NCBI GenBank assembly: GCA_951406725.2
Contig: OX597837.1
Coordinates: 37,944,001 to 38,008,000 of the forward strand
Source of the DNA: Octopus vulgaris
Lineage: Eukaryota
Direction: 5' to 3'
Length of the DNA: 64,000 nt
Shown in pieces: positions 16,083 to 17,866 of this stretch (position 1 is its first letter; every line of letters begins with the position of its first letter). The position numbers and the translations under genes are program-made. The notes under the pieces are model-generated. The model had not been told where the DNA came from. It made no database searches and was given only the letters and a program-made list of their open reading frames with translations.

Positions 16083-16677
16083 TTTTCTCCCTTCTTTCTT
16101 TCCTTCCCTTTTCTCTTTCTTTTCTTTCTTTCTTTCTTTCTTTCCTTCCTTTTCCCTTTCTTTTCTTTTTACTTTCTTTTCTTTCTTTCTCTCGCGATAT
16201 TTGTGTCTCTGTCTGTCTTTATCTCTCTCTCGCACACACACACACAGACACACACACACACTCAAACACACACACACACACGCGCAAACACACACACACA
16301 CATCGGCAAACACACACGCACACACACACGCAAACACACACACACACAAACACAAACACACACACACACACGCACACACACACACACACACATGCAAACA
16401 CACACACACACACTCAAACACACGCAAACACACACACACACACATACACACATATATGTATATGTATATATTTATATCCATGTTTGTATGTACTTATGTA
16501 TGGCTATGTATGTAAGTATATAGATATGCGTATAGATAAGTATGGATGTATGTTTGACCTTTCGGCGATGTGGTATCTTTTTAACTTTTCGTTTTTGCAG
16601 GAAAAAAGAAAAAAAAGATGCCAGTCACTAAGAAAGCGACAAGCCTCTTTCCTTGATGTTATAACATTTCTTGGTTA

Positions 16678-16771
<94 letters not shown>

Positions 16772-16935
16772 ATCTATCTATCTGTAGTAAAGGAAAATTA
16801 CTGTCGTAAACGAAGCTTGACTGAGGGTGTGAATAATACCTACATTGCTAGAAATAGGAGCTAAAATGTTCCAATGCTGTTACAAAGCACATAACATATA
16901 CACTGATAGGAGCTGCAATCACCCCAAAAACCGAA

Positions 16936-17092
16936 CCGAGAATTTCCCAGACTGACCAGTCTGTTTTGGCTATTGCCATAGTCATCTTCAGTAAGGCCAG
17001 CTCTTAGCCCAGAATCAAACGAACGAGCTGGTTTTACTGATGAAGGCCACGGCAATAGACGAAACTGACTAGTCAGTCTCAGGAATTCTCGG
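16936..17092. ncRNA. Foldback of two inverted hammerhead-like motifs
   Basis: Arms 16936-17003 and 17025-17092 are imperfect reverse complements. The + arm reads CTGATGA(17037)...GAAAC-TGACTAGTCA-GTC(17078). The - arm reads CTGAAGA-TGACTAT-GGCA-ATAGCC-AAAAC-AGACTGGTCA-GTC. Confidence 0.7.
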
Positions 17093-17280
17093 GTGGATAT
17101 ACGACTTTACACATCACATCATATATACATACACACGTCCAGACCTCTCATACGCACTACATACTCTCTCATACACACACACACACTCTTATGTTGGGGC
17201 GAGGTCATTTAACCCTATTATCTCCCCTAATTTCGCTCTTGCGTCTCACGTTTGATCTTTGACTTCTGGCCGAAATCAGA

Positions 17281-17502
17281 TCGCCATGTTGATTCGCTAG
17301 CCTCTGCACGCATTTTTTTCTCTCCTTGTTTCTCTCCTTGTTTCTCTACGTGTTTCTTTTCTGTGTATCTTTCTGTTGAAGAGCGTAGGCTCGAAACGTA
17401 AAAGACTTGTTTTATTTATATTCCTGAGCGCCATACTAATACAATTGTTTGTTTGTATTCCACCTGCCTTCGTCTTTTGTTTATTTTCATAAAGCTTCCC
17501 GT
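17281..17502 (+). mobile_element. Family H1 repeat with HHR-like motif at 17368-17405
   Basis: tcttt-CTGTTGA-A-GAGC-gtag-GCTC-GAAAC-GTA-aaaga; helices I and II pair perfectly; the copy ends in (TA)n. Confidence 0.7.
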
Positions 17503-17545
17503 TATATATACATATATATACATATACATATACATACATACACAC

Positions 17546-17600
<55 letters not shown>

Positions 17601-17637
17601 CATACATACATACATAAATACATACATACATACATAA

Positions 17638-17866
17638 GGCGAGCTGGCAGAAACGTTAGCACACCCGGCGAAATGCGTAGCCGTATTTCGTCTGCCGTTA
17701 CGTTCTGAGTTCAAATTCCGCCGAGGTCGACTTTGCCTTTCATCCTTTCGGGGTCGATAAATTAAGTACCAGTTACGCACTGGGGTCGATGTAATCGACT
17801 TAATCCGTTTGTCTGACCTTGTTTGTCCTCTCTATGTTTAGTCTCCTGTGAGTAATAAATAAATAA
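17638..17866 (+). mobile_element. SINE family B, near full length
   Basis: GGCGAGCTGGCAGAAACGTTAGCAC (A-box-like), GAGTTCAAATTC (B-box-like), A-rich tail; many near-identical copies in the window. Confidence 0.9.

Follow-up and report, generated by a model that had tools for sequence, protein, structure and literature searches.

It is quite probable, in our judgement, that the 157-base hairpin described here is the head-to-head junction of two decayed copies, of 217 and 88 bases, of one repeat family, likely made as the repeat inserted, both ends of the cut DNA priming reverse transcription in the Penelope-like, target-primed manner. The hairpin lies at 16936-17092 of the window, by which we mean the whole 64-kb stretch of DNA that was analysed. 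Both of its arms are copies of one dispersed repeat family. The hairpin is an ordinary by-product of insertion and not a two-ribozyme unit. Hammerhead motifs paired on opposite strands of a hairpin are expected from such an insertion and do not point to a viroid-like replicon. Outside annotation the locus has little significance. With it, there is one more animal genome where an ORF-less hammerhead unit of about 349 nt shows the tandem and inverted signature of Penelope-like elements.

The hairpin and its two arms

The arms of the inverted repeat, 16936-17003 and 17025-17092, are 68 nt long each, 79% complementary and separated by 21 nt. Folding of 16926-17102 gives one long hairpin on either strand, with -87.8 kcal/mol (z -11.61) on the plus strand and -87.4 kcal/mol (z -10.20) on the minus strand, and none of 200 shuffles was as stable in either case. 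These values agree with the inverted repeat of arms of about 68 bp that the first-pass annotation had placed here. The features are as follows.

16680..16783, no strand: (CTAT)n microsatellite, read from the sequence, adjoining the 3' end of the long copy and reading (ATAG)n on the strand of that copy
16787..17003, minus strand: long copy of the repeat family, unit 107-323 of the 356-nt reference L003:1395-1750, 86% identity
16945..16996, minus strand: decayed hammerhead-type motif of the long copy, with CUGAAGA, a bulged U and 5 of 6 helix II pairs
17004..17024, plus strand: the 21-nt 'loop' of the hairpin, of which 17005-17024 are unit 87-106, contiguous with the short copy
17005..17092, plus strand: short copy of the repeat family, unit 87-174, 85% identity to L003:1395-1750
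17032..17083, plus strand: decayed hammerhead-type motif of the short copy, with the core CUGAUGA, GAAA and GUC intact

These two copies are the only family pieces in the 64-kb window. The long one is 5'-truncated just ahead of its hammerhead motif and is followed by (ATAG)n. The short one lacks its own 3' part, with unrelated sequence from 17093 on, and a search of the 64-kb window for the rest of it found none. The stretch 17005-17092 matches the same copies on the opposite strand, 20 nt beyond the arm, and so the 'loop' belongs to the family and continues the right arm without a break. The 21-nt length given earlier for the loop stands, but the loop is not spacer.

A hammerhead-like string is read in each arm, one per strand, as the annotation had it: CTGATGA...GAAAC...GTC in the right arm on the plus strand, where it matches a loose hammerhead pattern (2 matches in the window vs 0.05 expected), and CTGAAGA...AAAAC...GTC in the left arm on the minus strand. 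The other loose-pattern match in the window, at 58120-58162, is without visible helix II pairing and is probably due to chance. Both window motifs are dead, and the damage reported earlier is present in the two of them. The long-copy motif has AAAA instead of GAAA, that is, A for G12, with GUC present, and the short-copy motif keeps its core with only 3 of 6 pairs in helix II and an A, not U, as the bulge. The arms have three subfamily states in common, namely a GGCA loop, A at column 53 and T at column 55. Both motifs lie within the arms only because the two breakpoints (unit 107 and unit 87) fall just upstream of the motif.

It had also been proposed that many arm mismatches would be G-U pairs on the plus transcript. 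This is not what the arms contain: of 14 mismatches in 68 positions, 5 are G-U on the plus transcript, 4 are G-U on the minus transcript and 5 are of other kinds, with no strand bias and therefore no sign of selection for an RNA hairpin. The 14 mismatches are later decay. A transcript across the locus would be predicted to fold as the long hairpin and not as hammerheads, at about -88 kcal/mol vs about -10 to -16 kcal/mol for isolated motifs. The idea that the hairpin sequesters the ribozyme is thus reasonable in energy terms, but it is moot because both motifs are dead.

The junction was also found in public contigs, which were compared with the window at 85% likeness. In a run that bears the label of another organism, a contig of 272 nt extends gap-free over 16865-17093 with 8 differences, and a contig of a further organism label covers 16997-17126 with 1 difference. 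Since contigs of other labels carry the junction, it is no artefact of assembly and is old, having arisen before some divergence. A contig of the main label spans 16872-17126 with no differences except that 20 nt of the left arm are deleted at 16956; this gap is either allelic or the result of a collapse within the hairpin.

The repeat family and its hammerhead-type motif

With 16783-17111 as query, a search of its own genome (2.8 Gb in 227 contigs) gave at least 405 first-look candidates, of which 40 were scored, with 87 matches. A natural full unit of 356 nt (L003:1395-1750) gave at least 611 candidates, and the copies in the 40 scored were 76-90% identical. The loci sampled are the best 40 of 405 and the best 40 of 611 candidates, and the sample is biased accordingly. 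The unit is about 349 nt long and without an ORF; tandem joins overlap the 356-nt reference by 7 nt. Among the best 40 of 405 candidates, the other scored copies match query positions 5-221 (16787-17003 of the window) or 223-316 separately, and no match at another locus crosses the window junction. The notion of the double-hammerhead hairpin as a conserved repeat unit, for which 16783-17111 had been put forward as the BLASTN query, is refuted by these single-arm copies.

In a 17-row alignment of 16 other copies and the long copy of the window, the 3' end has a fixed position and is followed by (TA)n, (CA)n, (ATAG)n or a similar repeat in at least 13 of the 17 rows. The 3' ends lie mostly at unit 352-356, with a second cluster at 311-330. 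The 5' starts vary, and they often fall back into the 3' part of the unit, which makes such copies longer than one unit. There is no enrichment of 5' ends at the predicted cleavage site (unit 160/161), and six of them fall at unit 147-155, inside the palindrome. An apparent recurrent boundary at unit 175 was discarded as a blastn artefact; the sequence of a sister subfamily carries on there in its own diverged form. This sister subfamily (L079-L100; for example L083:1489-1560, L086 and L098) came out of a search with a tight motif pattern and is 65-72% identical over the unit. The tight pattern gave 22 genomic matches, and its reversed control gave none. The family is old.

Each unit has one hammerhead-type motif, on a single strand: among 7 natural units it was found in sense in 6 and in antisense in none. 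A typical copy reads CCUUA-CUGAAGA-U-GGCUAY-GGAA-AUAGCC-GAAAC-UGACCGGUCA-GUC-UAAGG. Helix I has 5 bp, helix II has 6 bp and is closed by G10.1-C11.1, and helix III is a stable stem of 5 bp within a perfect palindrome of 14 nt. The merged motif that had been put together from the two arms is in this way recovered in nature, other genomic copies carrying the GGCTAT/ATAGCC helix II, GAAAC and the palindromic helix III. In the sister subfamily, helix I is CUUAA/UUAAG (vs CCUUA/UAAGG), helix II is GGCAAC/AUUGCC and the palindrome is ACUGACGCGUCAGU.

The bulged nucleotide between A9 and G10.1 is U in 33 of 36 copies, and G10.1-C11.1 was found in 46 of 53. As to the core, CUGANGA is retained in 32 of the 36 copies, GAAA in 21 and UH in 32; 17 copies retain the three together, and 3 of 36 look fully intact. 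The losses of G12 and C11.1 fall in a CpG, formed between C11.1 and G12.

Standard pairs make up 85.8% of the pair cells in the 36 copies, vs 17-41% with slid partners. In the alignment of 53 rows, of which 18 come from loci found by a pattern that fixes the core and the outer helix II pairs (2 of these 18 being outside the pattern match), the value is 85.4% of 938 cells vs 16-40% with slid partners. Cells changed on both sides number 61 in these 53 rows vs 25.9 +/- 3.6 in shuffles, none of 500 shuffles reaching 61. The covariation score is 0.253 vs 0.156 in shuffles (again reached by none of 500) and at most 0.09 in slid controls. Compensatory pairs, which trace to few independent lineages, are seen across the two subfamilies in helix I (CG 29/UA 14 and UA 31/AU 12), in helix II (UA 25/AU 21) and at the palindrome centre (CG 21/GC 6). 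The paired changes in two diverged subfamilies support the view that the motif and its palindromic helix III were under selection in active source elements.

The family thus has a conserved core and three helices around it that covary, as in a type I hammerhead, and its motif has the sequence features of the minimal Penelope-type hammerhead. Minimal hammerheads of Penelope-like elements are described in the accessible text of Cervera and de la Pena 2014 (PMC4209133) as having a long helix II, a short helix I, an unpaired nucleotide between 9 and 10.1, the G10.1-C11.1 pair and a palindromic 15.2-16.2/loop 3, with low activity and dimer dependence; the same source reports dual motifs on opposite strands, 100-700 bp apart. 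The family motif is like them in being of type I with a long helix II (6 bp) and a short helix I (5 bp), in varying in sequence within one genome and in occurring mostly as dispersed single motifs. It is unlike them in that helix III has 5 bp in a 14-nt palindrome, whereas theirs has 0-2 bp, and in that no family copy was found in the terminal repeat of an ORF-bearing element.

The Rfam hammerhead models did not match the whole window at the gathering score, nor, at E up to 10, did they match 16780-17120 or the intact-looking copy L003:1470-1600. On 20 family loci (E up to 1), no hammerhead was among the 150 of 198 Rfam matches listed, and those listed are microsatellite or miRNA-model noise. 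Isolated motifs of 57 nt do not have the three-way junction as their minimum-energy fold, with z of only -1.3 to -2.2. This weak folding is in keeping with the low, dimer-dependent activity reported for the minimal class in the part of PMC4209133 available.

A9, the bulged U and G10.1 spell AUG (for instance at L003:1519-1557, and in the 17043-17045 region of the window). From this AUG a frame of 12 codons, MATEIAETD.SV, runs to a UAA in the 3' strand of helix I, and in 12 of 14 copies of the sister subfamily the corresponding frame goes on without a stop over 23-49 codons. One Penelope-like element is reported to have its ORF begin at stem II of its hammerhead (PMC11167929, as far as its accessible text goes). 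By analogy, the frame of the motif AUG may be the vestige of a Penelope-type ORF start at that position.

Junction architecture and the Penelope-like reading

We mapped 76 family pieces from 38 independent sampled loci onto unit coordinates. The joins are 21 tandem (head-to-tail) and 15 head-to-head, with no tail-to-tail case. Tandem joins that exceed unit length occur in 18 of the 38 loci, in arrays of at most about 3 units in the sample. The head-to-head breakpoints vary by locus: 87|107 in the window, and 225|229, 176|106, 151|112 and 9|28 elsewhere. In at least 4 other loci a short inverted piece of about 50-100 nt adjoins the main copy at its 5' end. The motif falls in both arms at 2 of the 15 head-to-head junctions, that of the window and that of a near-full unit pair on contig 9. 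In the sister subfamily, L083 is a head-to-head pair in which both arms span the motif, and L095 seems to have the same layout, with inconsistent coordinates and strands for its minus arm. The window junction itself is a one-off among the sampled loci.

Insertions of endonuclease-bearing Penelope-like elements are described in the text available of Craig et al. 2021 (PMC8557442) with 5' truncation, a pseudo-LTR made up of partial tandems, a further 5'-truncated copy lying inverted immediately at the 5' end, a 'tail' extension of 30-40 bp and (TA)n or (CA)n targets. The family shows the same architecture in its 5' truncation, partial tandems, inverted copies at the 5' end and adjacency to microsatellites as targets. 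It differs in that the unit is ORF-less and in that the inverted piece of the window has only 88 nt, its own 3' end missing.

We propose that a single insertion event gave rise to both the long copy and the short inverted arm. In it, target-primed reverse transcription would have run from either end of the cut target, the long piece being primed at the 3' region of the unit and the short piece internally on the RNA near unit 174, with extension to 87. The enzymes would presumably have been supplied in trans by a Penelope-like element. An inverted 5'-truncated copy of the textbook kind would retain its own 3' end; since the short arm is without one, we have to assume internal priming or a later deletion. 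In the portion of PMC11167929 at hand, a purified Penelope-like enzyme is reported to cut both DNA strands, to extend them and to begin reverse transcription from internal RNA sites, and this activity offers a mechanism for head-to-head products.

Twin priming of LINE-1 is known to leave the 5' end of a target-primed insertion inverted, head to head. The window has a head-to-head inversion too; unlike in twin priming, 68 nt of template are common to its two pieces, and the family does not belong to the LINEs.

A parent element was sought. GIY-YIG searches of the genome gave 6136 candidates, and all 150 of the 150 scored passed the Pfam cut-off, many of them in open frames of 781 aa; judging from these matches, Penelope-like elements are abundant in this genome. 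In eighteen sampled Penelope-like loci (L031-L048), blastn found nothing similar to the unit and the descriptor used found no hammerhead. A family copy with a reverse transcriptase or endonuclease ORF was looked for and not found, and there was no long ORF after the motif in the 22 pattern matches or in the 150 peptide matches listed. The peptide search, with 27 aa translated from the motif AUG, gave at least 150 matches in open frames of at most 162 aa, the three longest being simple-repeat (microsatellite) artefacts. As no ORF-bearing parent was found, the term 'Penelope-derived' rests on the motif type and on the insertion architecture. The earlier suggestion of an inverted junction of Penelope pLTRs is consequently right in kind, given the head-to-head hammerhead repeats and the Penelope-like architecture, but what the searches recovered is an ORF-less unit of about 349 nt.

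One of the sampled loci, L043:430-5516 (G000 contig 16), is a young Penelope-like element with an open frame of 781 aa whose C-terminal part is a GIY-YIG domain. Its terminal repeats (pLTRs) are 300 nt long, 99% identical and flanked by (TA)n. About five tandem repeats of 93 nt, with TGACGTC in each, lie upstream of the 3' repeat, and the descriptor finds no canonical hammerhead in the element. Many GIY-YIG loci have the same score as this one.

Alternative explanations and surroundings

A small animal retrozyme would be an equally valid label for the family. Animal non-LTR retrozymes are tandem arrays of 150-450-bp units that carry a canonical type I hammerhead and are expressed as circular RNA, in the accessible text of Cervera and de la Pena 2020 (PMC7229834). 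We give some weight, as a tentative and less likely alternative, to the family being a retrozyme that spreads via self-cleaved circular RNA, the hairpin then being a junction in a small retrozyme cluster and not a fragment of a Penelope terminal repeat. The ORF-less unit of about 350 nt is of fitting size, has low GC and holds one type I hammerhead, head-to-tail joins of more than unit length are frequent (the 18 loci mentioned above), and the unit has no similarity to the 18 sampled Penelope-like loci. However, the arrays are short (none above about 3 units in the sample), the motif belongs to the minimal Penelope type and not to the canonical one with loop-loop contacts, and the 5' ends are not clustered at unit 160/161, though six of them lie close by at 147-155. 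A 2026 preprint (10.64898/2026.07.22.740005) argues, in the part of it available, that retrozymes derive from Penelope pLTRs and belong to the same lineage; the retrozyme and Penelope readings therefore overlap.

It is improbable that the inversion arose after insertion, at the DNA level, by fork stalling and template switching or by fold-back repair unrelated to retrotransposition. A short arm that stops abruptly at 17092 without its own 3' end would suit such an event, and the 20-nt deletion at 16956 in one contig suggests that the hairpin is somewhat unstable as DNA. Nevertheless, random DNA rearrangement does not predict 15 head-to-head joins vs none tail-to-tail; similar short inverted 5' pieces of about 50-100 nt recur at 4 other loci or more, and a run under another organism label has the junction too, at just 8 differences.

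The insertion reading can be carried one step further, into what we regard as speculation with small odds. The short arm would testify to an insertion where each of the two cut DNA ends served as primer for reverse transcription, one of the two priming internally at the hammerhead region, and the 68-bp hairpin would now be a source of dsRNA feeding small-RNA silencing or A-to-I editing of the whole family.

That the hairpin is a functional RNA unit, either a viroid-like rod with ribozymes in both polarities, as had been considered earlier, or a selected small-RNA precursor or editing substrate, is very hard to credit: it is very stable on either strand and the locus is kept in runs of other organism labels, but the other copies are one-armed with differing breakpoints, the junction is not repeated at other sampled loci, the motif has one polarity (sense in 6 of the 7 units, antisense in 0), both window motifs are broken, the arms are mismatched at 21% of positions without strand bias, and the sole Rfam match, mir-2767, has E 0.96 and 17.9 bits vs a gathering score of 69. 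The viroid-like rod, in particular, is refuted by the one-armed copies, the single polarity and the differing breakpoints. Viroid-like and deltavirus-like agents differ from the family in that its motif is in one polarity per unit and the two-arm layout is not common to its other copies.

Directly to the right of the hairpin, the summed contig depth at 17104-17175 and 17200-17300 is 10^4-10^6 in all four runs, far above that of the hammerhead repeat, which points to another extremely abundant short repeat. ARAGORN reports no tRNA-like gene at 17104-17175 or 17200-17300. Microsatellites are very dense, both around 16000-17640 and in other parts of the window, and comprise (CTTT)n, (CA)n, (CTAT)n and (TA)n. 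The window holds 167 stop-to-stop frames of at least 110 aa, often overlapping in several frames, and given this overlap we discarded them as ORFs and read them as simple-repeat artefacts. Many of the long stop-free frames, together with the spurious matches to miRNA families given by Rfam in E-value mode, probably come from these microsatellites.
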